Made by a program: the position numbers and the translations under genes
Shown here: positions 23,335-61,808 of the stretch, piece after piece
How positions within the stretch are numbered: position 1 is the stretch's first letter
Layout of the letters: each line of letters begins with the position of its first letter
Origin: Myxococcales bacterium
GTDB lineage: Bacteria; Myxococcota_A; Polyangia; Fen-1088
Direction of reading: 5' to 3'
DNA: 64,000 nucleotides
NCBI GenBank assembly: GCA_031423255.1
Contig: JANPFD010000022.1
Location: 6,704-70,703 of the forward strand
Notes under the pieces: model-generated
Told to the model about the DNA's origin: nothing
The model's database searches: none
What the model saw: the letters and a program-made list of their open reading frames with translations, nothing else

Positions 23335-24822
23335 TCAGCGCAGGTTCAGGCGGGCGCGCGTCGCCCAGAAGTTCCCGGTGTCGGCGATCTCGCCCAGGCC
23401 CGGGGCGGCGCGGGTGTCGATTCCCAGCGCGTCGCCCAGCGTGACCCAGAGTGAATCGATCTTCTGGCCGGCGTACACCGTTCCGGGCAGGCCGCTGCGC
23501 CCGAACAGCTCGGGCGATCCGGCATGGCCGGAGGTGCCGCCCGAGACGCGCAGGTGGCGTCCCGGTGTGATGATGCCGCCGCCACGTCCGGCCACGACGA
23601 TCGGCAGATCATGCACGTCGTGGGTGGCTCCGTGAGACATGGAGCCGGTGTAGACGGCCATGCAATTGTCCAGCAACGTGCCGCCGCCTTCGCCCGGGAG
23701 CGCCTTCAGCTTGCCCACCACACGGGCGTAGCGCTGGGTGTTCCACTCCTCGATGCAGCGCAGAGCGAGGATGCGCTCCTCGGCGGTGGCGGGGCTGTTC
23801 GGCGCCTCGCCGTCGACGGTGCCCTGGCTGTAGTGCGAAAGACCGTTGTGGTATTCGTGCGACCCCAGCACGAACTTCAGCCGGTCGCGCCTGGCAGCGT
23901 CGAGTGGCGTGCCGTCGCCGAGCGTCGCCGGTGGGGTGATGAAGCCGTACTTCATGCGCACCGTCTCGATGTCCGACTGCCAGGTGACCAGGCGGGTGAG
24001 ATCGCACTGGAACGCCAGCACCACCAGGTCGCCGATGAGATCCATCTGCTTCTCGAGGCTGCTGCCCGCCGGATAGGCGAAGGCGGCCTCCTGGTTCTTG
24101 CCACAGGTCGACGGCGGCAAGGCCAGCTGGCGCTGCACCTCCGTCAGACTCTGGAGGTATTCCGCCAGGCGCGCCTGATCCTCGCGGCCAAGCCGGGTGT
24201 TCAGGGACTTCGCCTGCGGCAGCACGAAATCCACCAGACCCTTGCGGTGGCGGATGGCGCGCGCAGCGGCTTCCATCGCCGCCGGGTCGGAGGCGCCGAA
24301 CAGGTCCAGGTACATCGCGTGCGGATCGGGGTTCTGGGGAGTGACGATGTAGTTCGTCGTCGAGGTCCAGGACATGAACATCTTCGACGCCTGGCCGTTG
24401 AGCGTCCGCCGTGTGCTCAGCTCGAGGGACTTGCGCCGTAGGCCCAGCTTGCGCAGGCGCGAGGAGAGGAACTGATCGTACGAAGGGCGGGCGACGATCT
24501 TGTCTTGCGACGTCGGACCGCCAGTCAGCATCTCGGCCTGGGGAGAGTGCGCGTCCTGCCCGGATGCTCGGTCGTGGTTGTCGATGCCCGACAGCACCAG
24601 GAGGTCCGATTTGTACGGATCGAGCGAACGGAGCGTCGGCGCGAGCGAGAACGGCATCTCCGGCACCGACGAGACCATCGATCGGCGGTAAAAGCCGTTC
24701 GGCGTGTTGAAGATCAAGAGCCGCACCGGACGGGCCTGGGCGCGTGCCTCCATGACTTCGAGGAACGGCAGCGCCAGGGACAGGCCGCCGCCGCGGAGCA
24801 TCGTCCGGCGTGAGAGCTTCAT
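23335..24822 (-). CDS. DUF1552 family protein with twin-arginine (Tat) signal - module A partner
   Basis: MKLSRRTMLRGGGLSLALPFL Tat motif. Conserved FQCDLTRLVT and C-terminal HDVHDLPIVVAGRGGG shared with three paralogs in this window. ATG 24822 overlaps the upstream stop. Confidence 0.85.
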   Translation of the reverse strand: MKLSRRTMLRGGGLSLALPFLEVMEARAQARPVRLLIFNTPNGFYRRSMVSSVPEMPFSLAPTLRSLDPYKSDLLVLSGIDNHDRASGQDAHSPQAEMLTGGPTSQDKIVARPSYDQFLSSRLRKLGLRRKSLELSTRRTLNGQASKMFMSWTSTTNYIVTPQNPDPHAMYLDLFGASDPAAMEAAARAIRHRKGLVDFVLPQAKSLNTRLGREDQARLAEYLQSLTEVQRQLALPPSTCGKNQEAAFAYPAGSSLEKQMDLIGDLVVLAFQCDLTRLVTWQSDIETVRMKYGFITPPATLGDGTPLDAARRDRLKFVLGSHEYHNGLSHYSQGTVDGEAPNSPATAEERILALRCIEEWNTQRYARVVGKLKALPGEGGGTLLDNCMAVYTGSMSHGATHDVHDLPIVVAGRGGGIITPGRHLRVSGGTSGHAGSPELFGRSGLPGTVYAGQKIDSLWVTLGDALGIDTRAAPGLGEIADTGNFWATRARLNLR

Positions 24823-26822
24823 GGCGTCCCTCCCCGGCGGGAGCGGAAGCTGCGGCCCGTCACCACCCGCCGCACCAGTTCCTTGAACGGGACGCGGTTG
24901 GCATCGGCAGACACCTGGTGCACGCCGCAGGCCTCCTGACCCGGGACCTGACGCCCGAGCGCGTAGACCATCAGACGTCGGCTGGCGCAGTTTCCGAGCG
25001 CCTGCTTGCCGGCCAGCACCTTCGCCAGCTGGGTGTGGTCCCTGAACGTCTCGCCCGTCGGCAGGTAGCCGCTGGCGTCCACCGGATTGCGCTTTGGCCC
25101 CTCGACGGTGCGGTATTTGCCCTGCGGACCGAAGTGCTCGAGACCGAAGCCGATCGGCTCCATGTTGGCGTGGCAGGAGATGCAGGTGCCCTGAGCGTGC
25201 ATCAACATCTGTTCTTTCTTTGGCAGGTCGAGGTTCCGGACCTTGTCGATGAGGGATTCCACCTCGGGCGGCGGCGGCGGTGGCGCCGAGCAGAGCAGGT
25301 TGTCGAGCACGTAGTGGCCGCGGATGACGGGCGCGGTCTCGATGTCGGGCGAGGACAGGGTGAGGAAGGCGGCCTGGGTCAGGATGCCGCCGACGCGCGC
25401 CGTACCCGCCGTCGGGACCTTGGCGAAAGCGGGGTCGCCCGCCGGCAGGCCGTAGTGCGTCCGCAGGGCGGCATCGACGAAGGTGAAGTCGGCGTCGACG
25501 AGGCGTGCGACCGGAAGCTGTGGGTTCGACAGAAGCTCCTGCATGAACAGCTCTGTCTCCTTCGCCATGCTGGTCCGCAGCGCCGGTGCGACCGTGTCCT
25601 CGTTGTCCAGCTCGCCGAGCCGCAGCCACTCGCGCGCGAATCCGCGCAGAAGCGCGCTCCGGCGCGGGCTGGCGTAGAGCCGGTCGAATTGAGCGGTCAG
25701 CACCTGCGCGTTTTTCAGCTGGCCCATGCCTGCCAGCCGGAACAGCTCGTCGTCGGGCATCGAGCTCCAGAGGAAGTAAGAGAGGCGCGTCGCCAGTTCG
25801 TGGTCGCCGAGGGCGCGTACCCCGGTGGCACCCGCGGGATCCAGCTCCACCTGGTACAGGAAGCTCGGCGTCAGCAGCACCGACTGGAACACCAGCTTCA
25901 TCCGCTCCTCGAAGATGGTGCCGAGAACGGTCTTGTCGTACTGGCCGAGCATCTCGGTCACCTCGGTAGCCGTGGCCGGCCGGCGGTAGGCACGCGGCAG
26001 GAAGCGCTCGAGGATCTCCTGCGCGCAGGCGCGCTCGTTGCCGGCAATCGGGCGCGAGCAGGCCATGGTCCTGGCGTAGGCGGCGTTGGTGGCGGCGCCG
26101 GCGAAGAAGGTGTCGACCGCGCGGATGCTGCCGTCGATCAACCCCTTGGTCAGCGTGTCGTTGATGAGATTCGAGGCCTCGTCGACGCGGGTGAAAGAAT
26201 AGGCGGTGGTCTCCGCGGGCAGCGCGGCGGCAGAGTTGAAGGTGTCGGGCAGGCCGAGCAGATCGCGTACGGTGTTGGCGTATTCGGTGCGCGTCAGGCG
26301 GCGCAGACCGTTCCAGGCGACGTCCGGCTCGCCGGGCAAGGAGTAGATCCACTCGCGGACGATGCGCAGCTCGTCGTTGGTCATGCGCGTGCCCGACGGC
26401 GGCATCTCCAGCGCCATGATCCGCTCGTCCATCCGGACCAGGCGGTCCATCTGTGCGCGCGCCGTGGCCTCATTTGCCAGGAGCTTGTCCATGGCGAACT
26501 TCCCGGACGGCGCCACACCCGAATGGCAGGTCACGCAATTGCGCACGAGGATCGGTTTGACCTGCTGCTCGAAGCTGATGGAGCTGTTGTCGACGCACAG
26601 CTTGGCCGGGACGAGCGTCGGGTTGCTCACCGGGTCGTTCGGGGGCGGAGGCATCCCGGGGCCCGGAGGGTTGAGGGGATTCAGCGGGTTCAGAGGATCG
26701 ACGGGCGGCGTCCCGTCGCTGTCGCCCGGGTCGCCTCCGATGTCGCCCACGCATGACGCAAGGATCGCTGCCAACCCCAAACAACAAAGATGGCGCACGG
26801 GCACGAGGCTCTCGTAAGGCAA
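24819..26822 (-). CDS. DUF1592/DUF1588/DUF1587/DUF1585-family protein with N-terminal CxxCH (Planctomycete cytochrome-c-like, PSCyt) - module A
   Basis: Lipoprotein-like N-terminus. CVTCHSG near the N-terminus, C-terminal CISCHANMEPIGFGLEHFG. Family hallmark ...TRTEYANTVRDLLG... and ...AYRRPATATEV.... Confidence 0.85.
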   Translation of the reverse strand: MPYESLVPVRHLCCLGLAAILASCVGDIGGDPGDSDGTPPVDPLNPLNPLNPPGPGMPPPPNDPVSNPTLVPAKLCVDNSSISFEQQVKPILVRNCVTCHSGVAPSGKFAMDKLLANEATARAQMDRLVRMDERIMALEMPPSGTRMTNDELRIVREWIYSLPGEPDVAWNGLRRLTRTEYANTVRDLLGLPDTFNSAAALPAETTAYSFTRVDEASNLINDTLTKGLIDGSIRAVDTFFAGAATNAAYARTMACSRPIAGNERACAQEILERFLPRAYRRPATATEVTEMLGQYDKTVLGTIFEERMKLVFQSVLLTPSFLYQVELDPAGATGVRALGDHELATRLSYFLWSSMPDDELFRLAGMGQLKNAQVLTAQFDRLYASPRRSALLRGFAREWLRLGELDNEDTVAPALRTSMAKETELFMQELLSNPQLPVARLVDADFTFVDAALRTHYGLPAGDPAFAKVPTAGTARVGGILTQAAFLTLSSPDIETAPVIRGHYVLDNLLCSAPPPPPPEVESLIDKVRNLDLPKKEQMLMHAQGTCISCHANMEPIGFGLEHFGPQGKYRTVEGPKRNPVDASGYLPTGETFRDHTQLAKVLAGKQALGNCASRRLMVYALGRQVPGQEACGVHQVSADANRVPFKELVRRVVTGRSFRSRRGGTP

Positions 26823-26926
26823 TCGGCATGCCCGGGAAGAGCCTGGAGATGTCGCGGATCTACCAGTGACGCCGGGATGATCGCGCCGGGCGCATGCGAT
26901 CTGGTGGATCGCACCCCGTCACCTTC

Positions 26927-27978: not shown

Positions 27979-27989
27979 CTTCCAGGATA

Positions 27990-44875: not shown

Positions 44876-44914
44876 CACCATCCCGCGGAGCGCGGCCTGC
44901 TACACTTCGCGCGC

Positions 44915-49156: not shown

Positions 49157-49158
49157 CC

Positions 49159-50454
49159 TTAGACCAGCCCCGCCAGCCGGCCGGTGCTGTCGCCGAACGT
49201 ATCCACCGGCACACCGATCCGGTCCAGCAGGGAGACGTACAGGTTGTTCAGCGGGAGCTTCTCGTACCTGAGATGGCGGCCCGGCTTGACGGTGCCGCCG
49301 CCGCGCCCGGCCAGGACCACGGGCAGGTCGTCGTGGTTGTGGCGGTCGCCGTCGCCGATGCCGCTGCCGTAGACGATCATCGAGTTGTCCAGCAGCGTGC
49401 CGTCCCCCTCGCCGATCGACTTCAACTTCTCCAGCAGGTAGGCCAGTTGCGTGGCGTGGAAGCGGTTGATGCGCGAGATCTTCTGCAGCTTCTCGGGGTT
49501 GCGGCCGTGGTGGGACAGCTCGTGGTGCCCCTCGGGGATCTCCAGGTGCGGGTAGCTCTTGTTGCTGCCGGCGTTCGCTACCAGGAAGGTGGCGATGCGG
49601 GTGATGTCGCTCTGGAACGCCACCACCAGCAGATCGCACATCAGGCGGATGTGTTCCTGGTTGTCGCTCGGGATCTCCTCCGGCCGCCCGAAGGCAGGCG
49701 CGTCGACGGGCGGCATCTGCCCGAAGCGCGCGATTCGCTGCTCGATCTCGCGCACCGCCGTCAGGTACTCGTCCATCTTGCGGTTGTCGGTCTTGCCCAG
49801 CCGAGGCTTGAGGGACTCGAGATCCCGGGCCACGAAGTCGAGGATGCTGCGCTTCTGGCGATCGCGCTTGGGGTCCACACCCATGCCGAACAGGCGGTCG
49901 AACACCAGCGACGGGTCCACCTCCTTCGCCAGCGGCATCGTGTCTGACTTCCATGCCAGGTTCGACGAGTAGGCGCAGGAGTAGCCCGAGTCGCAGTTCC
50001 CGGACTGCGCGCCGCGATCGACGCCCAGCTCCAGAGACGGCAGGCGCGTCAGATGGCCCAGCTTCTGCGCCGCCACCTGGTCCGCCGAGATCCCGTTCTT
50101 GATGTTCGCGCCGTTGGTCTTGTGGGGGTGCGCGCCGGTCAGGAACGCGCCCAGAGCCCGCGCGTGGTCGCCCGGTCCGTCGCCGAGCGCGAAGGCATTC
50201 CGTTGCTCGAGGCCCGTGAGGACGGTGATCTCGTCCCGGACACTGCGCAGCGGCTCCAGGATCGACGGCAACGTGAAGTCCGTCCCCGCCTTGCTGGGCG
50301 TCCAGTCCGGCATGTGCACGCCATTCGGGACGTAGAGGACGGCGAAACGCAGCGGCGCCCTGGGACGCTTCGGCGCTGCCATCGCCTCGAGCCACGGCAA
50401 CGAGACCCCGATTCCCACCCCACGCAGCAATGTCCGTCGGGATAGCGACTTCAT
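49159..50454 (-). CDS. DUF1552 family Tat-signal protein - module C partner
   Basis: MKSLSRRTLLRGVGIGVSLPWL. FQSDITRIATFL. HDDLPVVLAGRGGG. ATG 50454 overlaps the upstream stop. The N-terminal 171 codons of the track ORF are rejected. Confidence 0.85.
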   Translation of the reverse strand: MKSLSRRTLLRGVGIGVSLPWLEAMAAPKRPRAPLRFAVLYVPNGVHMPDWTPSKAGTDFTLPSILEPLRSVRDEITVLTGLEQRNAFALGDGPGDHARALGAFLTGAHPHKTNGANIKNGISADQVAAQKLGHLTRLPSLELGVDRGAQSGNCDSGYSCAYSSNLAWKSDTMPLAKEVDPSLVFDRLFGMGVDPKRDRQKRSILDFVARDLESLKPRLGKTDNRKMDEYLTAVREIEQRIARFGQMPPVDAPAFGRPEEIPSDNQEHIRLMCDLLVVAFQSDITRIATFLVANAGSNKSYPHLEIPEGHHELSHHGRNPEKLQKISRINRFHATQLAYLLEKLKSIGEGDGTLLDNSMIVYGSGIGDGDRHNHDDLPVVLAGRGGGTVKPGRHLRYEKLPLNNLYVSLLDRIGVPVDTFGDSTGRLAGLV

Positions 50455-52709
50455 GGTGTGACCTCTCCGCGCCTCTTCAAGAATGGATCGCTGGTGACGA
50501 TCGCCAGCACCAGGCTGGAGAAGCTGTCCCCAGCCTCGAGCGTGCGATCCGCGATGTCGTCGATGGCCGCCCGGTCGAACGGCTCGGTGCCGCGGCCCGT
50601 GGCGTAGGTCAGCATCTTCTGCGCGAACGAGCGCCGGAACGCCGCCTCCTTGGTCTTCAGGACCGCCTTCAGCTCGGTCGGGCCGCGGAACGACTGGCCG
50701 TTTGGCAGCACCCCCGACGAATCGACCGGTGTGCCGCTCTCGTCCTCTTCCGTGCGCCACCCGCCGACGGCGTCGAAGTTCTCGAGACCGAAGCCGAGGG
50801 GATCCATCTTGCGGTGGCAGACGGCGCAGTTCGGGTCGGCGCGGTGCTGCTCCAGTTGCTGGCGCATCGTTCCCGCCAGCTGCTTCTTCTTCGTGTCCTC
50901 GATCAGGTCCGGGACGCCGGGTGGCGGTGGCGGTGGTGGCGTCCCGAACAGTTGCTCCAGCACCCACTTGCCCCGTTTCACCGGCGACGTCCGCGTCGGG
51001 TTCGACGTCACCGTCAGCACGCTGGCCTGGGTCAGCACGCCGCCGCGGGGCGTTCCCGCCGTGGAGACGCGACGGAACTCCGATCCCTCGACACCGTCGA
51101 TGCCGTAGTGGCGCGCCAGGCGCTCGTTCAGATAGGTGAAGTCCGCCTCGAGGAACGTGCCGAGGGGCAAGTCCTCGCGCATCACCGCTTCAAAGAAGAG
51201 CTCGGTCTCCTTCATCATCGACGCTCGCAGGTTGTCGTCGAACCCGGGGAAGCGCCGCCGCGACGGCCTGATGCTCGACAGGTTCCGGACCTGCAGCCAC
51301 TGGGTGGCAAAGTTCTCGACCAGGGCGTGGGCCTTCCGGTCCTGCAGCATCCGCTTGACCTGCGCACCCAGCACCTCGGGCTGGTGCAGGCTGCCGTCGG
51401 CGGCCTGCCGGAAAAGTTCGTCGTCCGGCATTCCGCTCCACAGGAAATACGACAGCCGTGAAGCCAGCTCCCAGTCGTTGATCGGGTGCGCTTCGCCGGC
51501 CGGATCGCCCGGATCCAGCTCGACCCGGAAGACGAAGTGCGGCGAGACGAGGATGGCCCGCAGCGCCACCTGCATCCCGCGCTCGAAGGTGTCGCCCTCC
51601 TCGACCGCCTGCTCGACGAACGTCACCAGCCGGTCCAGTTCCGGGCGGGCGACGGGACGCCGGTAGGCGCGCGTCGCCAGGGTCGCCAGGAATTCCCGCG
51701 CGTCGTCGCGGTAAGTCTCGGCGCCGGGGTGTCGAGGGATGATCCGGGTGTGACTGTCGGGCAGCGCGCGCGCCTTCACCCTCAGTGGCCCCTCGATGCG
51801 CAAAAAATCGATCGAAACCTGGCGCTTGGGCGCCGGATTCGCGAACGCCAGCTCGATCCGGTGCCGCCCCCCGTCGACGGCGAACTTGGTCGTGTACACC
51901 GACGAGCCGCGCACCTCGATGGTCTTTTTCTCCTGGCCATCCACCTTCAGGACAAGCCGCGCCCCGCGCCCCGCGGCCTTCACCTTGAACATGTACTCGG
52001 CCTGGGTCGGGAACTCGTGATGCGCGCGCACCGAGCCGGCGGCACTCATCACCAGCTTGCCGTTCTTGATCGCGCTGCCGGCGGGGGTTGGCGCCAGCTT
52101 CTCCACCTCGATCGTGTCGCCCCGGAACTTCGGGTCGATATCGGCGACGATCACCTTCTCGGCGATCCGGTCGGCGGCCGCGAGATAGCGCTCGACGAGC
52201 AGCGGCGGCATCGATAGCACGTCGCCGATGTTGTCGAAGCCGTAGCCGACGTCGTCGGAGGGAAACTGGTTCGCGGGCTTGAGGTCGACGCCCAGCAGAT
52301 CGCGGATGGTGTTGTTGTACTCGGCGCGGTTCAGCCGCCGGATGGTCACCCGACCCGGGTCGCGCTTGCCGTCCGCCGCGGCGCGGCTCTGCGCCCAGTC
52401 GATCCAGGCCATCAGGCTTTGGACCTCGGCCGCGGTCGGTTGCGGCTTCTCCTCGGGCGGCATCTCGCGTGCCTCCAGCCGCTCGGCCACGGTCTGCCAG
52501 ACGTGGATGTTCTTGAGCAACGCCGTCTCGTCCGCCCCGCGGAACGCCTCGAAGCTCAGGTCCCCTTTCTTTTGGTCACCCCCGTGGCAGGACCCGCAGT
52601 ACTTGTCGAGCAGGGGGACCATCTCGCGACCGAAGTCGGCCGCCTGGGCACTGCCACCGGCGAGCACCACAGACGCTACGCGGCACAAAGAAGCAGCCAG
52701 GCGAATCAC
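50451..52709 (-). CDS. DUF1592/DUF1588/DUF1587/DUF1585-family protein with N-terminal CxxCH (PSCyt-like) - module C
   Basis: Signal peptide. CGSCHGG at the N-terminus. RRLNRAEYNNTIRDLLG, AYRRPVARPELDRL. C-terminal CAVCHRKMDPLGFGLENFD. Confidence 0.85.
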   Translation of the reverse strand: MIRLAASLCRVASVVLAGGSAQAADFGREMVPLLDKYCGSCHGGDQKKGDLSFEAFRGADETALLKNIHVWQTVAERLEAREMPPEEKPQPTAAEVQSLMAWIDWAQSRAAADGKRDPGRVTIRRLNRAEYNNTIRDLLGVDLKPANQFPSDDVGYGFDNIGDVLSMPPLLVERYLAAADRIAEKVIVADIDPKFRGDTIEVEKLAPTPAGSAIKNGKLVMSAAGSVRAHHEFPTQAEYMFKVKAAGRGARLVLKVDGQEKKTIEVRGSSVYTTKFAVDGGRHRIELAFANPAPKRQVSIDFLRIEGPLRVKARALPDSHTRIIPRHPGAETYRDDAREFLATLATRAYRRPVARPELDRLVTFVEQAVEEGDTFERGMQVALRAILVSPHFVFRVELDPGDPAGEAHPINDWELASRLSYFLWSGMPDDELFRQAADGSLHQPEVLGAQVKRMLQDRKAHALVENFATQWLQVRNLSSIRPSRRRFPGFDDNLRASMMKETELFFEAVMREDLPLGTFLEADFTYLNERLARHYGIDGVEGSEFRRVSTAGTPRGGVLTQASVLTVTSNPTRTSPVKRGKWVLEQLFGTPPPPPPPGVPDLIEDTKKKQLAGTMRQQLEQHRADPNCAVCHRKMDPLGFGLENFDAVGGWRTEEDESGTPVDSSGVLPNGQSFRGPTELKAVLKTKEAAFRRSFAQKMLTYATGRGTEPFDRAAIDDIADRTLEAGDSFSSLVLAIVTSDPFLKRRGEVTP

Positions 52710-52752: not shown

Positions 52753-54036
52753 CTAAAGAGGCCGCTCGACCAGCCGGTACAGCCCTGGCGGGGCGTCCAG
52801 AATGACAATCGTCGTGACCTGGACGGCGAAAGCCGATATCCCATCCTTGACGACCTCGTACGGTTGTCCCTCCTCCCTCGTCGCTTCGACGGCGTAACGC
52901 TTGCCCGGGACCAGGACCGTTCGCAGCGTGAGCGTACCGTCCGTATACGTGAAGCTCGATCCCCACGGCTGGGCCAGAGGTTCGCCGATGAACAACCCTT
53001 CACCGGGCCAGAGCACCGTCTTCCAGTACGCTTCGACGATGGTCGCTCCGCGCAAATAGTGCGACAGCAGCACGCCGGCGTTGGGAAACTTCGTCGGGAA
53101 AGCACAAGGCTCCACGACCGTTCCGTAGCTGGCCGTGACGCCCGCCTCCAGCCAGCGCACCGCGCTCATCTGAGAGCTACTCGGCACGCGTCCACCGAAA
53201 GAGGTCATGTGATCCGCGACGGCACCCGGCAGATAGCTGTTCGTGCCGATGGCGTCGACGCTGGCCAGTGAGGTGAAATAGAAGAGCACGTCCGTCTTGT
53301 CACGAACATGGTTGGCTCCGTTTCCCATGGAGTTGTCGATGTAGTCCAGACTGAGCGACATCTGGCCGTTCCACGTCGTGACGGTCTGCTTGAACTCCGG
53401 CCACCGGGCGCTGCGGGCTGCATCGTTGGTCCTGATGAAGTACCCGTTCCCTCCCGGATAGGTCGCATCGGCCGCGACCCCCTTGTCGACGAGGCGCCGG
53501 GCGTCGTCGACGGACGCGGCCGCCAGCATCATCGCAGGGCGAATCCCGAGGTCGTCATGCGGACGCGTCGAGCTCGAGTCGTAGTAGGCCACCGGGGCCG
53601 TCGCGCTGCAGGTCCCTGTGCCTACCTTGCAATATTTGGCGTCGAAGCCCAGCGCCACCGCGGAGGTCATGGACATGCAATCGACCCGGTAGGGAGTGGT
53701 CCAGGTGATCGCATAGGCCTGAACCTCGGGCGGAGTGGCCGCGTCGATCTGGGCCTTGAGGGGAGCGAAACCATCTCGCGCAAGTACGGCGCCCGAAGGG
53801 TCGAACGCCAGGCGGATCACATTCTGTGGAGGAATTCTTCGCTTCTCCTGGTAGTACGCCGCCACCGCCACGGATTGCGGGTCGTTCGTGTTGACGAGGA
53901 TCGCAAGCTCTGCCGAGGTCACCGCCTGGCGTGGGAAGAGCACCCGCACCGACCCCGCAGCGCCATCGCTTTCGCTTTCGCGCACGCATCCCCCGAGGAG
54001 GAGGAGAACCATGATGGGCGTTCGCAAGCCGGTCAC
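52753..54036 (-). CDS. Hypothetical secreted lipoprotein
   Basis: MVLLLLGGC lipobox. 427 aa, no assignable catalytic motifs. Confidence 0.5.
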   Translation of the reverse strand: MTGLRTPIMVLLLLGGCVRESESDGAAGSVRVLFPRQAVTSAELAILVNTNDPQSVAVAAYYQEKRRIPPQNVIRLAFDPSGAVLARDGFAPLKAQIDAATPPEVQAYAITWTTPYRVDCMSMTSAVALGFDAKYCKVGTGTCSATAPVAYYDSSSTRPHDDLGIRPAMMLAAASVDDARRLVDKGVAADATYPGGNGYFIRTNDAARSARWPEFKQTVTTWNGQMSLSLDYIDNSMGNGANHVRDKTDVLFYFTSLASVDAIGTNSYLPGAVADHMTSFGGRVPSSSQMSAVRWLEAGVTASYGTVVEPCAFPTKFPNAGVLLSHYLRGATIVEAYWKTVLWPGEGLFIGEPLAQPWGSSFTYTDGTLTLRTVLVPGKRYAVEATREEGQPYEVVKDGISAFAVQVTTIVILDAPPGLYRLVERPL

Positions 54037-54039
54037 CTG

Positions 54040-56796
54040 CTACTCCCGGATGAGCTCCACAGGTCCTATCAGGCCAGCGGGCGGCGGGTCTTTGGTGACT
54101 TTCTTCTCCTGCGGGTCGGGAAACCGATTTCCGTAGGCAGCGCGGAGAGGACGGAGGTCCTCGTCGGGCAGGCCGAGGAGACGATTGAGCATCAGGTTGC
54201 CCACGGTCACTTTCACCGTGTTTTTGCCCTGTTTCAGCAGCGGACCTATCTCCACGTCGTAAGGAGGCAGCCAGACTCCGCCGGCCAGCTTGTCGTTCAC
54301 CCAGACCTCGCCCGCTTCCCGCACCTCGTGGAAACGAAGCTTGATAGACCCTCCCGCCGGCTCGTCCCAGGCGAAGGTCGTCTCGTAGGTCGCCTGGCCC
54401 GAGAAGGCTTTCCCGCCGGGCCATTGAATCCAGGACACCAGGTCGCCCGTCAGCACGGGGCGCGGCGCATCGGGGCCACTGAAGGTGACCTTCCACTCCG
54501 CGCCGTCCCATTTGCGGACCGATTCGCGGGACGACACGTCGGTTGCATCGAGGCGAACAAGTCTCGACCGAGATTCTGCTGTCGCACGTCGAGGGTAGAG
54601 CAAGAACGTGGAGCCGCGCGCGGCCAGATGGACTGGCAAGGGCCTGGCCGTCCCCCCGGGAGCAAGCCTCACACGGTGTTCGCCCGTTGCGGGATCGAGC
54701 TGGAGCACCGGCGTCTTCTGATGACCGAAGGTGAAATCGGCGGGGACGTCGGCGGTGTTGGCGACGAAGACGATGTCGTAGTCGGAGGTCCTTCGTTGCA
54801 CCGAGGCAACGCTCGGCTCCGATCTCAGCGGCGCAATGTGCGCGTTGCGGGCCCCCTCGGTGAAAACTGCGGAGGACGTGACGTCCGTTGCTGCGCCAAC
54901 GAAGGCGGTCTTCCCGCGTCCGACGTATGAGCCGCCAAAGAGTTCCCGGGAAAGTTGCTTCAGCCGAAGATCACGCGCCCGGTTCCCCGAAGCGCCACCG
55001 AACGATCTGTCCGGCGTGCGGCCCGTGGCGATGAGCGTGCCGCCTTGCCTCACGAACTCCGCGAGCTTCTCCAGAGCCTCCAGTTCCATCCCCTCCACGT
55101 CCGGCAGGATGACGACGGAATAGGCCCCGTCGCCACAGATCAGCTTGCCGCCCTTGATACTCGCCTGCCGGATGAGCGTCCAGAAGTCGATTCCGTCGAA
55201 GTTGTAGCCCCGAGTCACCAGCGTGTGGATGAGATCGGAGCGGTGCTTGCGGGCATTGACCAGGCTGAACTCACCGGTCTTCTCGCCGGTCACGAAATGG
55301 TCGCGCAGGAGAAAGTCGAGGGGCATCTGGGCCACGGGGCCGCGCGCAAACGCCTGCTCGACCGGAAGGTAGAGCGCGATCTGCGCGATGGGCTTGCCCT
55401 GTCGAAGCAGCCACTGGCTCCGGTTGACGTACTGAACGAGATACTTGAAGAAGGGCCACTGCGGGTTGTTCTGGTTCATCACCGGGCCGAAGTAGGGCAG
55501 CCAGCCGGGCGGCGCGACGCTTGGCGGAGAGTATGAGAAACCCACTCCGGTCAGGTCGTTGATGCCTGCAAGGAAATGAAAGTCCGAGGCGAGTTTCAGG
55601 TCGCGCAGGCTATCGACGAGACGGTTCGGGATCCCGGTCCAGGTCCACGCCTCCGCCCCGATGACGCGCTTTGCGGCGAGGTGTCCGCCCGAGGATGCGT
55701 AACGCGAGAAGGAGAAGCCCATCCACTCGTACTGCTCTCCGGTCGGGACGTCGATGTGGCGGAACGAGGTGAGAGGGCTGGGTGGCGTGCCGTAGGCCTC
55801 CATTTCCAACTTCACGCCGTGCTTGCCGGACCACGCGCCGAGCGGCTTCGTGAAGCGTTCCTCGTTCAACTCGGCCAGGGTGCGCCAGAAGTCGAAACGG
55901 AGGTCGGGTGACGTCACGCCTTTGTCGTCGAACAGTTCGACAAGGCGAGAGACAAGGTCGTAACCACGGCGCTTCAGGAACACCTGAGGCAGGTCGTGGG
56001 TCCAATTCGCGTTGTAGACCTCAAGGCTGTCGCAGAAGATCGACTCCACCAGCCCCGGCGCGGCCCGGAGCAGTGGGCTCACGTTCGCCTCCAGCCATCG
56101 CTCGAGCGCGGGCGTGTTGTAGTGATCGAGCACGTAACCGTCCGCCCCGAGGGCTGCGCGCTTGACCTTCATATAGGTCGGGCCCGTCACGAAAAGCGTG
56201 AGTGGTTCGTTGCCATGTGGCCGTTCATCCCCGATGGCGGGCAGGTCGATCCGTCGCTGCTGACGCCACGCCGCCAGGATCCGCTCGCCCTCCTGAAGCG
56301 TCGGCATCGCATACGCGGTGCCATCGGCTGTGGGAGGCACCGCCACCCGGCGGATACGCTGGGCGGCGTCCTGCAATCTGACGGTCGGTCCGCCGAACGG
56401 CCACCCGGTCCCGCCTTCCACACTGAATCGCAGTCCCAATGACTTCGCCTTCTTCGCGGCATACGCGAAGTTGTCCAGGAATTCCCTCGATAGAAAAGCC
56501 TGGTTCTTGATTCCCCTCGCCGGATCGTCGATTGCGACGGGATAGAACGGTATGAGCGTCACGCCACCCACACCGGCCTGCCTCAGCAACGTCAGTTGAT
56601 GGTCGATGCCCTCATGGTTCCACGCCGGTCCGAATACGTGCCAGTACATGCGCATCCGCGCCTCGGGCGGCGGGTTCAGGAAGCCCTCGAGCAGGGGATC
56701 GGCCTTCTGCTGCGCGTGTGCGTTCGGCTGGGCGGCCTGGGTGGCCAGCCATGCGGTCAGGAGAAGACCCCGACGACCGGCGTTTGATGTTGTCAC
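54040..56796 (-). CDS. Large secreted glycoside-hydrolase-like protein with C-terminal galactose-binding-like (GH2 sugar-binding type) domain
   Basis: Signal peptide. N-terminal (beta/alpha)-barrel-like region (MRMYWHVFGP...GVGGVTLIPFYP). C-terminal ...LKQGKNTVKVTVGNLMLNRL... resembles GH2 N-terminal jelly-roll. Family assignment is tentative. Confidence 0.55.
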   Translation of the reverse strand: MTTSNAGRRGLLLTAWLATQAAQPNAHAQQKADPLLEGFLNPPPEARMRMYWHVFGPAWNHEGIDHQLTLLRQAGVGGVTLIPFYPVAIDDPARGIKNQAFLSREFLDNFAYAAKKAKSLGLRFSVEGGTGWPFGGPTVRLQDAAQRIRRVAVPPTADGTAYAMPTLQEGERILAAWRQQRRIDLPAIGDERPHGNEPLTLFVTGPTYMKVKRAALGADGYVLDHYNTPALERWLEANVSPLLRAAPGLVESIFCDSLEVYNANWTHDLPQVFLKRRGYDLVSRLVELFDDKGVTSPDLRFDFWRTLAELNEERFTKPLGAWSGKHGVKLEMEAYGTPPSPLTSFRHIDVPTGEQYEWMGFSFSRYASSGGHLAAKRVIGAEAWTWTGIPNRLVDSLRDLKLASDFHFLAGINDLTGVGFSYSPPSVAPPGWLPYFGPVMNQNNPQWPFFKYLVQYVNRSQWLLRQGKPIAQIALYLPVEQAFARGPVAQMPLDFLLRDHFVTGEKTGEFSLVNARKHRSDLIHTLVTRGYNFDGIDFWTLIRQASIKGGKLICGDGAYSVVILPDVEGMELEALEKLAEFVRQGGTLIATGRTPDRSFGGASGNRARDLRLKQLSRELFGGSYVGRGKTAFVGAATDVTSSAVFTEGARNAHIAPLRSEPSVASVQRRTSDYDIVFVANTADVPADFTFGHQKTPVLQLDPATGEHRVRLAPGGTARPLPVHLAARGSTFLLYPRRATAESRSRLVRLDATDVSSRESVRKWDGAEWKVTFSGPDAPRPVLTGDLVSWIQWPGGKAFSGQATYETTFAWDEPAGGSIKLRFHEVREAGEVWVNDKLAGGVWLPPYDVEIGPLLKQGKNTVKVTVGNLMLNRLLGLPDEDLRPLRAAYGNRFPDPQEKKVTKDPPPAGLIGPVELIRE

Positions 56797-56804
56797 GTGT
56801 AAAT
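56788..56804. promoter_or_regulatory. Related imperfect palindrome TGTTGTCACGTGTAAAT overlapping the start of the glycoside-hydrolase gene
   Basis: Shares the CACGTGTAAA core with the 58695 site. Overlaps the GTG start at 56796. Confidence 0.3.
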
Positions 56805-56818
56805 CCCCGGCGGCACAG

Positions 56819-57874
56819 TCACGGCCGCGGGCGGCGCCGAGGCCGCTCGACCGGGGCGCCGGTCGACTCGCGCTCCACCAGCTCGACGGGCAGGATCTGG
56901 TGCCGGGGACGGAAGGGGACCTGACTGGAGGCCTGCTCGAGCACGCGCAGCACCGCCTGCGCGCCCAGCTGGGCTTTCGGCTGGCGTACGGTCGTCAAGG
57001 AGGGGGACAGGAACGGCGCGAATGAATCGTCGTCGTAGCCCACCAGCAAGACGTCGCGCCCCACCTGAAGGCCGCGCTCGGCGAACGCCCGCATCGCGCC
57101 GAGCGCGTGCAGATCGTTGGTGCAGAAAAGTCCGCGCGGGGCAGGGTGAGTCTCGAGGTACGCAAGCACGGCGGCATGGCCGTAGGCCTCGGGACGGGCG
57201 TGCAGGGTGCGATCGCCAGGGATGAAGCACGGGCGCCGCTTGTGCCGTTGGATGGCGCGGATGTAGCCCGCGCGGCGGGCTGCTACCGCGCTGTGGTCCG
57301 GCGAGGCCGACGCCTCCAGCAGGGCGGCGTCTACGCCGCGCGCCAGCAGATGATCGGTGGCGGCTGAAGCTCCCGCTTCGTGGTCCGCGATGACGAAGGT
57401 GTCTCGCGTCGTGAAGTGGTGGTCGACGAAAACCACCGGTCGCCGATCGGACACCCGGCGCCATAGCGCGAGATTCAGCCGGGTCACCACCGGTGTGGCG
57501 ACCACGCCGACGACGTCCAGACTGATCAGGTGTCGCAACATCTGCGCCTCGAGTCCCGGGTCGTCCCCGGAGCAGCGGTAGACGAGATCGTGATCGTGAC
57601 GTAGGGCCTCGCGCTCGGCCGCCTCCACGATCTCGGCGTAGAAGGCATTCGTCAGCGACGAGACCAGGAGGCCGATGGTGCGGCTGCGGCCCGATACCAG
57701 CTTGCGTGCGTAAAGGTTGGGAACGTAGTCGAGCCGCTCGCACGCCGCCTCGATGCGCCGGCGCACCCCAGGCGAGCCCGCCGATGGATCGTTGAGCACC
57801 TTGGAAGCCGTGACACGCGACACGCGCGCGAGGCGCGCCACGTCGGACATGGTGACGCGGGCGGAGCGGATCAT
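56819..57874 (-). CDS. LacI-family transcriptional regulator
   Basis: HTH VTMSDVARLARVSRVTASKVLN and periplasmic-binding-protein-like sugar-binding core. Confidence 0.85.
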   Translation of the reverse strand: MIRSARVTMSDVARLARVSRVTASKVLNDPSAGSPGVRRRIEAACERLDYVPNLYARKLVSGRSRTIGLLVSSLTNAFYAEIVEAAEREALRHDHDLVYRCSGDDPGLEAQMLRHLISLDVVGVVATPVVTRLNLALWRRVSDRRPVVFVDHHFTTRDTFVIADHEAGASAATDHLLARGVDAALLEASASPDHSAVAARRAGYIRAIQRHKRRPCFIPGDRTLHARPEAYGHAAVLAYLETHPAPRGLFCTNDLHALGAMRAFAERGLQVGRDVLLVGYDDDSFAPFLSPSLTTVRQPKAQLGAQAVLRVLEQASSQVPFRPRHQILPVELVERESTGAPVERPRRRPRP

Positions 57875-57916
57875 GACCCGAGCATCTTACAAGAGCGCCT
57901 GTCGTCGCCCCCAGTT

Positions 57917-58693: not shown

Positions 58694-58694
58694 C

Positions 58695-58710
58695 CCGGAA
58701 GGTACTTTAC
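58695..58710. promoter_or_regulatory. Perfect 16-bp palindrome CTTTACACGTGTAAAG in divergent SDR / DUF1592-module-D intergenic region; candidate LacI-family operator
   Basis: Read directly. Left half CTTTACAC is the exact reverse complement of GTGTAAAG. It sits 0-50 bp from both start codons, with the LacI gene adjacent. Confidence 0.4.
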
Positions 58711-58740
58711 ACGTGTAAAGCCACCGAGTATAGTGGCTCG

Positions 58741-60375
58741 ATGGTCAGCAGTCGTCTCGCGCTCCTGATCCCCGCCTTGTTCCTGTCGGCGGCATCGTGC
58801 ATGGGCCAGATCGCCGGCGGCGATGACGGTGAAACCAGCGTCGAGCGAGCGACGCCCGGATCGATCCGTGTCTGGCGTCTCACGACCCAGCAGTACGACA
58901 ACACCGTTCGCGATCTTTTGGGGGACACCAGCAGGCCGGCTCGCCTTTTCACGCCGGACATCGGCGGCACCGGCTTCACGAACAACGCCGATCTGCTCGG
59001 AGTCAATCCGGCGCAGGCGGCCGAGTTCGCGGCAAGCGCGGCGCGACTCGCTTTCGATGCGGTCACCTCCAGGCTCGGCCGCATCTTCCCTTGCCCCGCC
59101 TCCCAGCTGACCGATGCCGGGTGTGCGCGCCAGTTCATCGAGACCTTCGGCCTTCGCGCTTTCCGGCGCCCGCTGGGCGCGGACGAGGTGGCCGCTTACC
59201 TCGGGCTCTACGCCCAGGGTTCACAGACGATCGACGCGACAGCGGGGCTGTCGCTGGTCATCGAAACGATGCTGCAGTCCCCGCACTTCCTCTACCGGAG
59301 CGAGATTGGCGATGGCCGCCCGGACTCTGGCGGTGAAGTGCGTCTCACCCCCCACGAGCTCGCCAGCGCTCTGTCGTATCACTTCGTGGGCAGCATGCCC
59401 GACGAGATCCTGTTCGCGGCGGCCAGCAGTGGCAGCCTGAGCACACCGGCGGGCCTGGGCGCGGAGGTCGAACGGCTGGCGGCCAGGGACGATGCACGCG
59501 CCCCGATGCTCGACTTTTACCGACAGCTCCTGGACTACGACGACGTCGGAAGTGTCACCCGCGACCCGAAGCTGTTCCCGAAGTTCGACTCGGTTCTGGC
59601 GAGCATGCAGCGTGAGACGCAAACGTTCATCGAGAAGAACGTCTTCGAGGGTGATGCTCGACTCGATACGTTGCTGACGGCGCCGCACAGCTACATCGAC
59701 GCCAACCTCGCTCCCATCTACCGGCTGCCCAAGCCGAACGGAACGACGATGGTGCGGGTCGACCTCGATCCCGGCCAGCGCGCCGGACTGCTCACCCAGC
59801 CCGGTTTCTTGACCATCCACTCCCTGCCCGACGAGACGTCGCCGCCGCGCCGGGGCAAGTCAGTGCTGGAGAAGATTCTCTGCCTGCACATCCCGCCACC
59901 GATCGACAACATTCCCGATCCGCCGTCTCCCGCGGGCAAGGAGAGCACCCGGCAGAAGTTCGAGCGCCTCACCGGTCCTCCTGTGTGCATGGGGTGCCAT
60001 CGGCTACTCAACCCCGCCGGCTTCTCCTTCGAAGCTTATGACGTCGTCGGGGCGTGGAGGACGGTCGACAACACGCTCCCCGTCGACACCCGGGTCGACC
60101 TGACTGGCATTCCCGGTGTCGACGGCCCGGTGGCCGGCGCCGTGGACCTGGTCAGGAAGATCGCCCAAAGCCGCGAGGCGGGGGAGTGCCTTGCGCGCCA
60201 GACGGTGCGGCATGCCTTCGGCCGCGAAACGGGCAGTGACGACGACGGACTCGTCTCAAAGATGTTAGCGCGCTTTCAAGCGACTGGCGGCAATGTGCGC
60301 GAACTGTTCGCGTCCGTGGCCGGCACCCGGGCCTTTACCCACCGGCGTATGGGGTTTTCGGCAGGTGTGCAATGA
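58741..60375 (+). CDS. DUF1592/DUF1588/DUF1587-family protein (short form) - module D
   Basis: Signal/lipobox LFLSAASC. WRLTTQQYDNTVRDLLG, AFRRPLGADEV. C-terminal CMGCHRLLNPAGFSFEAYD. Confidence 0.8.
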   Translation: MVSSRLALLIPALFLSAASCMGQIAGGDDGETSVERATPGSIRVWRLTTQQYDNTVRDLLGDTSRPARLFTPDIGGTGFTNNADLLGVNPAQAAEFAASAARLAFDAVTSRLGRIFPCPASQLTDAGCARQFIETFGLRAFRRPLGADEVAAYLGLYAQGSQTIDATAGLSLVIETMLQSPHFLYRSEIGDGRPDSGGEVRLTPHELASALSYHFVGSMPDEILFAAASSGSLSTPAGLGAEVERLAARDDARAPMLDFYRQLLDYDDVGSVTRDPKLFPKFDSVLASMQRETQTFIEKNVFEGDARLDTLLTAPHSYIDANLAPIYRLPKPNGTTMVRVDLDPGQRAGLLTQPGFLTIHSLPDETSPPRRGKSVLEKILCLHIPPPIDNIPDPPSPAGKESTRQKFERLTGPPVCMGCHRLLNPAGFSFEAYDVVGAWRTVDNTLPVDTRVDLTGIPGVDGPVAGAVDLVRKIAQSREAGECLARQTVRHAFGRETGSDDDGLVSKMLARFQATGGNVRELFASVAGTRAFTHRRMGFSAGVQ

Positions 60376-61808
60376 CCACCAGCCGTCGTGCCTTCTCGAG
60401 AATCCTGGGTACGGGCGCCTTCGCCGTGCCCCTGCTCTGGCGCTATGGCCGAACGATCGCCGCCGGTCCCTCCCCGTCGGGTCCCAGGCGGCTGCTGATC
60501 TTCTGGAACCCGCAAGGGAACTGCTCCGGTCTGCCCGTGAATGGCGTCGACGCATTCTGGCCCACCGGTACCGAGAAGGACTTCAAGCTCAGCCGGATCC
60601 TCGCTCCGCTCGAGCGCCACAAGAAGGATTTGCTGCTGCTCAAGGGGTTCAACGACTGGGCGACCATGGCCAGGCCGTTGTGCTCACCGATCGTGAGCGA
60701 TGGCGAGCACGGGTTTGGCACCATGTGCCGCCTGACGAACACGTGCCCGACGACGGCGAGCGTTGGTGGAGCGGCACCTCGCCAGTGGGGAGGCGGCATC
60801 TCCATCGACCAGGCGATCAGCCAGACCGTGGGTGCGGATACGCCCAGGCCGTCGCTCGAACTGATCGGCAGTGCCAACAAGAACTCCAACCACCGCGGGT
60901 TCATCAGCTACTCGGGCGCGGGCCGCCCCGTCATTCCGCAGGCGAGTCCGCTCGGCGCCTACGATTCTCTCTTCGGCGGCAGCACCGGGCTGGCCGGCGA
61001 TCCCGCGAGGGTGAAGGCATTGCGGGCGATGCGCAAAAGCTCCCTCGACCACATTCTCTCGGAGATCGCGCGCGTGCGCAGCCGGTTGCCCGCCTCCGAA
61101 CGAGCGAAGATGGACGGCCATTTCGAGGCCGTCCGCGTCCTCGAGCGCGACCTCGACGACCGGGCGCCGACCGTCTCCTGTGACCGCCAGCGGCCGCCTT
61201 TCCCGGCCGATCCCATCCCAACCTTCCCCACCCGGCATGAGTTGCACTTCCGAACCATCGCCGCTGCCTTCGCCTGCGATCTCACGCGTGTGGCCACGTT
61301 CATGGCCGCGTCCGGGGGAGGAGACACAGCCCCGGACCTCCGGGCGTTCATGCCGGACTGGCAGACGAACTATCACTCCACCGGACACGCGTCGGGCGGC
61401 AACTCCGACGGCGGCGGGAACAACGCTGCGGTTCGCGACCGCGCGCTCGAGGTGATGATCCGGGTCAGCACCTACTACGCCGACCAGCTGGCAAAATTCG
61501 TCGACGCATTGAAGGCCATTCCAGAAGGCGCCGGTACGGTGTTCGACAACACCGTGATCCTATGGTGCAGCGAAATGTCGCACGGGAACCACGGCAACAG
61601 CTCCGTGCCCTACGTCGTCATCGGCGGCGGCTGGCACCTCCGCACCGGGCGCTTCTTGGACCTGCCCACGTACAGCAAGTACGACTTCAGCAACAAATCC
61701 GGCACGCCGCTGGTGTTGATGGCGAACGCCATGGGGCTGCCAATCAGCAGCTTCGGGCGCGCCGACTGGTGCGACGGTCCCGACAAACTGACTGCAATCC
61801 GCGGCTAG
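60372..61808 (+). CDS. DUF1552 family Tat-signal protein - module D partner
   Basis: MTTSRRAFSRILGTGAFAVPLL Tat motif. FACDLTRVATFM. ATGA overlap with the upstream gene. Confidence 0.85.
   Translation: MTTSRRAFSRILGTGAFAVPLLWRYGRTIAAGPSPSGPRRLLIFWNPQGNCSGLPVNGVDAFWPTGTEKDFKLSRILAPLERHKKDLLLLKGFNDWATMARPLCSPIVSDGEHGFGTMCRLTNTCPTTASVGGAAPRQWGGGISIDQAISQTVGADTPRPSLELIGSANKNSNHRGFISYSGAGRPVIPQASPLGAYDSLFGGSTGLAGDPARVKALRAMRKSSLDHILSEIARVRSRLPASERAKMDGHFEAVRVLERDLDDRAPTVSCDRQRPPFPADPIPTFPTRHELHFRTIAAAFACDLTRVATFMAASGGGDTAPDLRAFMPDWQTNYHSTGHASGGNSDGGGNNAAVRDRALEVMIRVSTYYADQLAKFVDALKAIPEGAGTVFDNTVILWCSEMSHGNHGNSSVPYVVIGGGWHLRTGRFLDLPTYSKYDFSNKSGTPLVLMANAMGLPISSFGRADWCDGPDKLTAIRG

Follow-up and report, generated by a model that had tools for sequence, protein, structure and literature searches.

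PSCyt and PSD domains were first defined in Rhodopirellula baltica. The pairing of proteins carrying them with DUF1552 has been published by He et al. 2017 (PMC5615132), who found that Group III PSCyt3/PSD4 genes (with PSD2/3/5) adjoin DUF1552 genes and drew a link to carbohydrates; neither a Tat signal nor the DUF1552 fold was discussed, and the function was stated as not known. For the sister family DUF1501, the corresponding Tat-plus-cytochrome reasoning has also been published: Kamneva et al. 2012 (PMC3542564) described, in PVC bacteria, a DUF1501 + PSCyt1/PSCyt2/PSD1 module made up of a twin-arginine protein and a signal-peptide-bearing putative cytochrome, and inferred a cofactor-bearing enzyme with electron transfer.

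The stretch of DNA analysed here (64,000 nucleotides, hereafter the window) carries four DUF1552 (Pfam HXXSHH) genes, at 23335-24822 (-), 47882-49156 (+), 49159-50454 (-) and 60372-61808 (+). Their products, D1 to D4, comprise 495, 424, 431 and 478 residues and score 166.7, 226, 349.4 and 185.4 bits against PF07586 (gathering threshold 30). All four gene lengths agree exactly with the database calls, including the 424-residue form of D2, and the exact D1 protein is present in the NCBI collection. The partner proteins P1 to P4 are encoded at 24819-26822 (-), 46164-47885 (+), 50451-52709 (-) and 58741-60375 (+), and each contains all five Pfam domains (DUF1587/1595/1592/1588/1585) above threshold in the order PSD3-PSD5-PSD4-PSCyt3-PSD2. 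In 4/4 pairs the DUF1552 gene starts 4 nt inside the stop of the partner gene, and this ATGA overlap couples the translation of the two. The modules span 23.3-26.8, 46.2-49.2, 49.2-52.7 and 58.7-61.8 kb. Approximately 25 unrelated genes also lie between positions 23335 and 61808.

A profile search places the DUF1552 family at 21,601 clusters at 50% identity. Searching for homologues with a profile of the four paralogues returned mostly the same D3-like subfamily. A comparison of related loci, for which D3 alone served as the query, found the DUF1552-partner pairing kept at 71 of 80 genome loci from Planctomycetota, Armatimonadota and Verrucomicrobiota, while at 6 of the 78 informative loci DUF1552 lacks a partner gene inside 4 kb. 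Divergence of DUF1552 and of its partner is weakly correlated across loci (rho 0.33, p 0.02), a correlation we do not take as evidence of subunit contact.

The original prediction assigned Sec or lipoprotein signals to the large partners, and this is borne out by the lipoboxes LASC in P1 (26751-26762, -), AAGC in P2 and AASC in P4 (a lipoprotein-type signal), and by a Sec-type signal in P3 that ends at AQA, directly before AD. CxxCH motifs occur once in P2 (47499-47513, +) and P4 (59986-60000, +), and twice in P1 (26523-26537 and 25170-25184, -) and P3 (52584-52598 and 50814-50828, -). The P3 homologues listed, 119 plus the window's own protein, contain CxxCH twice in 120/120 cases, with an RR-x-h-h pattern in only 5/120. 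Since haem c is joined to still-unfolded protein in the periplasm, the partners, as putative haem proteins, would have to use Sec. The N-terminal domain, cytochrome-c-like in P1 and PSCyt1 in P3, matches Cytochrome_CBB3/PSCyt1 in Pfam, and some partners add a class-I cytochrome-c domain or an insert resembling a carbohydrate-binding module (CBM). In P3 (AlphaFold pLDDT 90.9), a CBM36/CBM60-like β-sandwich is inserted between PSD3 and PSD5 (aa 196-311; 51777-52124, -).

The N-termini of the DUF1552 proteins read MKLSRRTMLRGGG, MKMVRRYSPRREFLQGVG, MKSLSRRTLLRGVG and MTTSRRAFSRILG, with the cores SRRTMLR, PRREFLQ, SRRTLLR and SRRAFSR to be compared with S/T-R-R-x-F-L-K at the n/h boundary within the first ~35 residues. 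The proposed fit to the Tat consensus holds for all four, and the family-wide sequence S-R-R-x-(F/L/V)-L-(R/K)-G, in which x is T or A, conforms to it as well. The Tat-type signal regions cover aa 1-30 of D1 (MKLSRRTMLRGGGLSLALPFLEVMEARAQA; 24733-24822, -, with the RR at 24805-24810), aa 1-36 of D2 (MKMVRRYSPRREFLQGVGLGAFALPFLRATEGRAQT), aa 1-27 of D3 (MKSLSRRTLLRGVGIGVSLPWLEAMAA; nt 50374-50454, -) and aa 1-31 of D4 (MTTSRRAFSRILGTGAFAVPLLWRYGRTIAA). Across the whole DUF1552 family, the conserved core of this segment is S-R-R-x-(F/L/V)-L-(R/K)-G-x-G-...-L-P-(F/L/W)-L. The twin arginine on which the prediction depended is found in 117 of 120 close orthologues, the three exceptions being truncated sequences, so that it is kept in 117/117 at full length. 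Among 150 diverse representatives of 50% identity clusters it occurs in 146, the others being one R-K and three truncated sequences (146/147 at full length). Column counts are 146/146 for R6, 145/146 for R7, 136 for L10, 147/149 for P20 and 131/149 for L22. The basic position beside the RR varies (R in 98, K in 17); the RR being fixed while its basic neighbour changes points to selection on the twin arginine and not to a mere composition effect.

In Tat signals the h-region is moderately hydrophobic and about 12-20 residues long, and the c-region behind it has an A-x-A. The uncharged h-stretch comprises 11 residues in D1 and D3, 15 in D2 and 13 in D4; the family median is 12, with at least 13 residues in only 71/146 members and an acidic residue often next. 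An A-x-A follows the h-region in D1 and D3, though not cleanly in D2 and D4, and in 104/146 family members. The N-terminal profile of the family also shows a weak match to the N-terminus of PvdN, a Tat substrate. The genes of the window include no tat genes.

The Pfam TAT_signal model gave 14.4 bits for D1 (E 0.038), below its cut-off of 22.7, and no match for D2-D4; it is nevertheless the only recurrent secondary match of the DUF1552 family (22/100 members at E <= 0.1). A control with eight validated Tat signals showed that only one passed the cut-off: TorA, DmsA and PhoD were missed, and SufI, AmiA, EfeB and HyaA fell below it. The DUF1552 scores lie in the same range as these, and with 7/8 validated signals missed the model is uninformative here. 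A scan of all eight proteins (D1-D4 and P1-P4) against NCBIfam matched neither a Tat model nor a useful named family.

These sub-threshold models, together with the short h-region, would suit ordinary Sec signals in which the RR simply reflects the arginine-rich composition of a 68% G+C genome. A loose rule (RR plus an uncharged stretch) also flags 3 of the 49 other predicted proteins of the window; against these stand 4/4 DUF1552 proteins, a difference beyond chance. We nonetheless consider this explanation highly improbable, as the near-universal RR extends over several phyla with the next basic position swapping R for K, the full S-R-R-x-F/L-L-K/R motif is conserved, and hydrophobicity of the h-region is significantly lower than in the Sec signals of the partners (1.72 vs 2.28; p = 6e-25). 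Split export, with DUF1552 predicted to use Tat and its partner Sec, is well supported.

A different question is whether the segment has a role beyond targeting: after Tat targeting it might be kept, either uncleaved as a tether or as a peptide on which the partner or a chaperone docks. Among orthologues, residues 5-25 vary less than the mature enzyme does (column entropy 0.66 vs 1.05 bits); only 14% of mature 21-residue windows exceed them in conservation, and the sequence on either side is hypervariable; the family-wide P20 and L22, and the lack of an A-x-A site in D4, point in the same direction. An uncharged stretch of 11-15 residues is, however, too short for a membrane span, and the A-x-A seen in most family members argues for cleavage. 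The L-P-hydrophobic element near the h/c boundary also occurs in the validated Tat signals CueO, DmsA, SufI and PvdN. In the AlphaFold model the DUF1552 N-terminus is unstructured, with the fold starting at ~residue 34 and the segment not packed against it. Retention of this kind thus seems to us very unlikely.

Two further motifs had been proposed to recur in all four DUF1552 proteins. The first, D-x-T-R, is present as FQCDLTRL in D1 (D-L-T-R at 23992-24003, -), IACDLTRV in D2 (DLTR at 48701-48712, +), FQSDITRI in D3 and FACDLTRV in D4 (DLTR at 61278-61289, +), and corresponds to the family-wide D283 (139/149), T285 (141/149) and R286 (145/149). The second, VVAGRGGG, recurs in part: D1 and D3 have VVAGRGGG/VLAGRGGG (GRGGG at 23575-23589 and 49294-49308, both -), but D2 has VLAGGLFQGG and D4 VVIGGGWHL, and only P378, G383, G387 and G392 are conserved family-wide within this stretch. 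The H-x-x-S-H-H motif reads HELSHH in D3, HGISHG in D2 (HGISH at 48779-48793, +), HSTGHA in D4 (HSTGH at 61374-61388, +) and (H)NGLSHY in D1, where H311 is replaced by N and H310 is retained. In the family alignment H315 is invariant (149/149) and H311 nearly so (147/149). Inspection of the alignment for metal ligands yields H97, H311, H315, H372, D125, D283 and D356 as conserved candidates.

The fold of DUF1552 is that of the alkaline-phosphatase/sulfatase superfamily, whose core α/β arrangement it contains, at an identity of 9-13% to members of that superfamily. No solved homologue came up when the PDB was searched by sequence with profiles of DUF1552 and of the partners. Neither the canonical metal-binding Asp after strand 1 nor the Ser/Thr/formylglycine nucleophile is conserved in the DUF1552 alignment; the canonical set of the superfamily also comprises a distal Asp-His pair, and as a whole this set is not kept. 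Strand 1 (residues 36-41) is followed by P-N-G in the family (N in 114, and less often C, Q, H or D), and an invariant His (147/149) lies at a helix N-terminus, residues 96-97; judged by topology and not by superposition, H97 would occupy the nucleophile position. The C/S-x-P-x-R sulfatase signature is absent from D1, D2 and D3, and the sole match in D4, SGPRR at aa 36-40, sits in the linker before strand 1. Alignment of the family with human arylsulfatase A by hhalign gave a marginal C-terminal match with a probability of 3.6%, in which D281/N282 align to non-conserved DUF1552 residues; as the match is marginal, catalytic residues are not assignable from it. The 80 loci were also screened for a sulfatase gene from which a better profile could be made, and contained none.

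To our knowledge, the characterised alkaline-phosphatase-superfamily members are all hydrolases, transferases or mutases, with no redox enzyme among them. DUF1552 could accordingly share the export architecture described above and still be an ordinary non-redox hydrolase/transferase of this superfamily that acts on decorated glycans, cleaving sulfate, phosphate or phosphonate esters or similar. Tat would then serve only metallation control or fast folding, and the PSD/PSCyt3 partner would provide substrate binding and anchoring, its haem being structural or regulatory. The CBM-like insert of P3, the GH106-like, polysaccharide-lyase and esterase genes nearby, the six loci with DUF1552 but no partner, and the frequent occurrence of sulfatase genes near PSCyt genes (PMC5615132) are in line with such an activity. 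Replacement of the canonical nucleophile and Asp ligand speaks against it, as does the partner, whose CxxCH is invariant and which in many members carries a separate class-I cytochrome-c domain, making electron transfer hard to avoid. We regard this alternative as possible, if rather unlikely.

The known PSCyt3/PSD + DUF1552 module is thus present in the window as four paralogues. The reading we prefer, to which we give an even chance, is that in this module a Tat-exported catalytic subunit and a Sec-exported haem partner are joined after export. DUF1552 would fold, and probably take up a metal at a His-rich site (H97, H311, H315, H372), in the cytoplasm, and the folded protein would then cross the membrane by Tat. 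The partner would pass through Sec in the unfolded state, allowing haem c to be added in the periplasm, and would be lipid-anchored afterwards; the two would meet only after export. DUF1552 would act as the catalytic subunit and the partner as the electron-transfer and substrate-binding subunit, a division of labour like that of NapA (Tat) and NapB (Sec). The CBM36-like insert of P3 and the GH106-like, polysaccharide-lyase, esterase and LacI genes neighbouring the modules suggest that the substrates are likely glycan-derived. The two proteins may form a physical complex, for which the original prediction proposed a periplasmic or outer-membrane location. The description, in that prediction, of the module as a pair of redox partners is plausible for the haem subunit with its CxxCH motifs; DUF1552, on the other hand, is no recognisable redox protein and has an alkaline-phosphatase-type fold.

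A bolder proposal, which we consider doubtful, is that DUF1552 + PSCyt3 represents a redox-active enzyme class, the first with an alkaline-phosphatase fold, in which a His-ligated metal on the Tat-exported catalytic subunit would be wired through the partner's haem(s) to the respiratory chain or O2 and would modify complex glycans oxidatively or reductively. Under this proposal, the unusually conserved Tat signal might also be what a dedicated maturation factor recognises. If correct, such a redox enzyme would offer an alternative to glycoside hydrolases, its lipoprotein partner contributing one or two c-type haems and in some cases a CBM.

In itself the finding in the window is ordinary, adding four more copies of a widespread module of a functionally unsolved kind. 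DUF1552 + PSCyt3/PSD is a very large family, abundant in Planctomycetota, Verrucomicrobiota and Armatimonadota, and is seen here in a high-G+C genome. What the analysis contributes is a narrower hypothesis space: the catalytic-looking subunit has an alkaline-phosphatase fold minus the canonical catalytic set, a strongly conserved Tat motif appears to target it, and its partner is a predicted Sec-exported, lipoprotein-type haem-motif protein, sometimes with a CBM.

Compared with the alkaline-phosphatase superfamily (S1 sulfatases, NPPs, PafA, phosphonate monoester hydrolases and phosphoethanolamine transferases), DUF1552 has conserved histidines instead, and a cytochrome-type partner is obligate. 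In NapA/NapB and SorA/SorB, the catalytic subunit is exported by Tat and the small c-type cytochrome subunit by Sec, the catalytic subunits binding molybdopterin or Fe-S clusters. The DUF1552 module resembles these systems in having adjacent, co-expressed genes for a putative Tat-dependent catalytic subunit and a putative Sec-dependent cytochrome-type subunit; it differs in that their catalytic subunits do not have the alkaline-phosphatase fold, whereas its own cytochrome-type subunit is larger and mostly a lipoprotein. The DUF1501 module of Kamneva et al. follows the same two-gene Tat + cytochrome logic with other Pfam families, its partner being PSCyt2/PSD1 where that of the window is PSCyt3/PSD2-5; indeed, the DUF1501 profile (PF07394) does not match D1-D4, and matches only 1/100 DUF1552 members weakly (E 0.074). 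Closest of all is the Group III module of He et al. 2017, whose domain architecture is identical to that of the window (PSD3-PSD5-PSD4-PSCyt3-PSD2, with optional PSCyt1 and CBM) and which likewise has an adjacent DUF1552 gene and a carbohydrate-related neighbourhood; the window differs from it in belonging to a 68% G+C genome and in holding four copies within 38 kb.

Motif scans and ORF translations located four genes in the window whose products match the DUF1552 family (HXXSHH, PF07586) at 167-349 bits, against a family cut-off of 30 bits: D1 (23335-24822, minus strand, 495 aa), D2 (47882-49156, plus strand, 424 aa), D3 (49159-50454, minus strand, 431 aa) and D4 (60372-61808, plus strand, 478 aa). 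Exact protein matches to all four, encoded on one contig, are present in the NCBI public collection, so the start codons correspond to an independent gene call. Directly 5' of each, on the same strand, lies a gene with the Pfam domain order PSD3-PSD5-PSD4-PSCyt3-PSD2 (the partners P1-P4, numbered accordingly). The partner stop overlaps the DUF1552 start in an ATGA in all four pairs, and a clear Shine-Dalgarno-like purine run precedes three of the four DUF1552 starts, which implies translational coupling of the two genes. The D2 and D3 genes converge, and the 2 nt that separate their stops (TAA-CC-TTA, 49154-49161) are too few to hold a terminator.

P3 and D3 close an apparent operon, LacI-GH106-lipoprotein-P3-D3, in which successive genes lie 22, 3 and 43 nt apart and the last two overlap by 4 nt. 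It comprises a LacI-type regulator (56819-57874), a GH106-like alpha-L-rhamnosidase (54040-56796, minus strand, 918 aa) and a predicted lipoprotein (52753-54036, minus strand, 427 aa, lipobox LGGC) without a Pfam match. The rhamnosidase N-terminus, MTTSNAGRRGLLLTAWLATQAAQPNAHAQQ, is also Tat-like (twin-arginine) in appearance. Immediately 5' of P2-D2 are genes for an esterase (PF00756), a polysaccharide lyase (PF14099) and a rhomboid protease (42664-46045, plus strand); a second rhomboid gene lies at 37361-38224. Following a 23-nt gap, D1 is trailed by a minus-strand cluster (18665-23311), each gene overlapping by 4 nt, that encodes glutamine-synthetase-like, Fe-alcohol dehydrogenase, peptidase C26/GATase and aldehyde dehydrogenase proteins. 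It resembles a gamma-glutamylation (Puu/Ipu-like) pathway of amine or amino-alcohol catabolism, and P1-D1 is possibly co-transcribed with it. Downstream of D4, a Calx-beta-domain protein (61825-64000, plus strand) runs past the window end, its length of 1300 aa being that of the gene call on a matching Logan contig (L081 1954-2437). Elsewhere the window (G+C 68%) encodes a Ser/Thr kinase with a beta-propeller, an FHA-sigma54 activator, a PilZ response regulator, a prepilin peptidase and a Reg_prop/Y_Y_Y histidine kinase; with the high G+C, these genes point to a soil bacterium with a large genome, Myxococcota-like or similar.

The original prediction assigned Tat signals to the DUF1552 proteins and Sec or lipoprotein signals to the partners, and its observations were largely confirmed. 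The four N-termini are letter-for-letter as quoted and the motif scan recovered all four (C/S)-D-(L/I)-T-R motifs, but the supposedly recurrent GRGGG occurs in D1 and D3 and is absent from D2 and D4. A permissive criterion (RR-x-h-h in the first 35 residues, then at least 11 uncharged residues) selects all four DUF1552 proteins versus 3 of the 49 other predicted proteins of this arginine-rich window. Conservation argues more strongly against chance. Of the top 120 homologues of D3, at 56-73% identity, 117 carry the arginine pair, the other three being N-terminally truncated. A profile search with the four paralogues returned 21,601 family representatives (50%-identity clusters, E <= 1e-3); the best 150 of these comprise 146 with RR, one with R-K and three truncated sequences. 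RR is kept in orthologues and across the family, all exceptions but the single R-K being truncated. In a 149-sequence family alignment the Arg columns score 146/146 and 145/146, whereas the adjacent basic position is R in 98 and K in 17. As this neighbouring column swaps R and K, it serves as an internal control, and shows the twin arginine to be selected rather than compositional. The consensus L-S-R-R-(T/A)-(F/L/V)-L-(R/K)-G corresponds to the Tat motif S/T-R-R-x-F-L-K, establishing at the sequence level a family-wide Tat-consensus N-terminus.

The best 12-residue hydrophobic window has a Kyte-Doolittle mean of 1.72 for DUF1552 versus 2.28 for partner signals (p = 6e-25), a difference in the direction expected for Tat compared with Sec. 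Against Pfam TAT_signal (cut-off 22.7 bits), D1 scored 14.4 bits and D2, D3 and D4 gave no match, nor did an NCBIfam scan for a Tat model match any of D1-D4. When eight experimentally established Tat signals were scanned as a control, CueO exceeded the cut-off, SufI, AmiA, EfeB and HyaA fell below it at 11.7-17.7 bits, and TorA, DmsA and PhoD went undetected; two DUF1552 homologues scanned alongside scored 16.4 and 17.8 bits. TAT_signal was the sole recurrent secondary family in 100 DUF1552 members (22/100, best E 8e-4). The model is uninformative rather than negative, since seven of the eight established signals are also missed or sub-threshold. The real weak point of the Tat call is the short uncharged stretch, which spans 11 residues in both D1 and D3, reaches at least 13 in only 71 of 146 family members, and often has Glu or Asp after it. 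No clean A-x-A site was found in the D4 signal. Among 117 D3 orthologues, the signal core (residues 5-25) has a column entropy of 0.66 bits versus 1.05 bits for the mature enzyme; only 14% of mature windows are more conserved, the core flanks are hypervariable, and P20 is kept in 147/149 across the family. Core conservation above that of the mature enzyme is odd for a signal peptide (D3 signal, 50374-50454).

An AlphaFold2 model of D3 built on 149 diverse sequences was of high confidence (pLDDT 93.4, pTM 0.90). Residues 1-30 have pLDDT 57-72 and the fold starts at approximately residue 34, consistent with a detachable signal. Foldseek comparison of the model with the PDB retrieved sulfatases and other alkaline-phosphatase-superfamily proteins only (best E 1.5e-5), while a PDB sequence search detected no homologue; on this basis DUF1552 forms a distinct, deep branch of that superfamily. 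It does not conserve the canonical catalytic set: strand 1 is followed by N, C, Q, H or D in place of the canonical Asp, the C/S-x-P-x-R sulfatase signature is absent from DUF1552, and the positions aligned with the sulfatase D-(H/N) pair vary. R36, G45, H315 and H372 are invariant in the family, with H97, H311, S123, D125, Q126, D283, T285, R286 and D356 at least 93% conserved. The modelled secondary structure comprises strand 36-41, helix 67-75, strand 76-83 and helix 96-104, the latter beginning at H97 and ending L-T-G. From this topological order, H97 probably occupies the usual nucleophile position, and H311, H315 and H372 are predicted at strand C-termini on the same face.

As originally predicted, the partners carry other signals, with lipoboxes in P1, P2 and P4 and a Sec-type signal in P3 if translation begins at an upstream GTG. 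The P3 start in the database, which gives 739 aa, falls within the predicted signal peptide (MVLAGGSAQAADF..., 52671-52709, minus strand); from the GTG at 52709 the product has 752 aa and a proper signal, MIRLAASLCRVASVVLAGGSAQA/AD. All four partners contain CxxCH in PSCyt3, and P1 and P3 possess an extra N-terminal class-I cytochrome-c-like domain (Pfam PSCyt1/Cytochrome_CBB3) that in a PDB search weakly resembles the bc1-complex cytochrome c subunit. Both CxxCH motifs occur in all 120 of the P3 homologues listed, a set of 119 together with the window's own protein, and RR-x-h-h in only 5 of them. P3 also contains a CBM-like insert, and a PDB search with the helical PSD domains found no solved relative. 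Of 80 genome loci with a D3 relative (Planctomycetota, Armatimonadota, Verrucomicrobiota and a few odd bins), 71 carry a P3 homologue directly upstream on the same strand, and two have upstream sequence too short to judge. Six, mostly Verrucomicrobiota (L033, L037, L043, L047, L061 and L078), have neither a P3 or other PSCyt3/PSD homologue nor a CxxCH ORF within 4 kb either side, so pairing is not obligatory. The closest D3 relatives among species-representative genomes are from Planctomycetota and Armatimonadota (<=64% identity), and the best identity in a metagenome-inclusive protein collection is 73%.

PSCyt3 genes usually adjoin DUF1552 genes, function is stated as unknown, and CBMs together with gene neighbourhood point to carbohydrate metabolism (He et al. 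2017, PMC5615132). A sister module, DUF1501 with PSCyt, has a twin-arginine motif, and a cofactor enzyme plus cytochrome was inferred for it (Kamneva et al. 2012, PMC3542564), the same inference as the original prediction made for the DUF1552 pair. As both the pairing and the sister-module logic are published, the window's pairs add members to a known, uncharacterised module. A "secreted protein containing DUF1552" is in the list of a 2009 R. baltica study, and full-text literature searches turned up neither functional nor structural work on DUF1552 or the partner family. Apparently unstated in the literature searched are the alkaline-phosphatase fold with canonical residues lost, the quantified RR invariance, and the signal core more conserved than the mature enzyme.

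The redox-pair reading is supported in part, its weak point being that nothing marks DUF1552 itself as redox. We give a haem-coupled redox role an even chance or slightly less, and consider it less likely that DUF1552 is a plain hydrolase with the partner as its binding or anchor subunit. Haem c is attached in the periplasm, onto unfolded apoprotein delivered by Sec, whereas Tat cargo consists of folded proteins, often metal- or cofactor-loaded. Because of these differing demands, separate export routes and post-export assembly are suggested for the haem-coupled pair: DUF1552 would travel via Tat and the partner via Sec, the two subunits joining after export with the lipid anchor on the larger, partner subunit. 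The same split-route logic, also proposed originally, is known from NapA/NapB and SorA/SorB.
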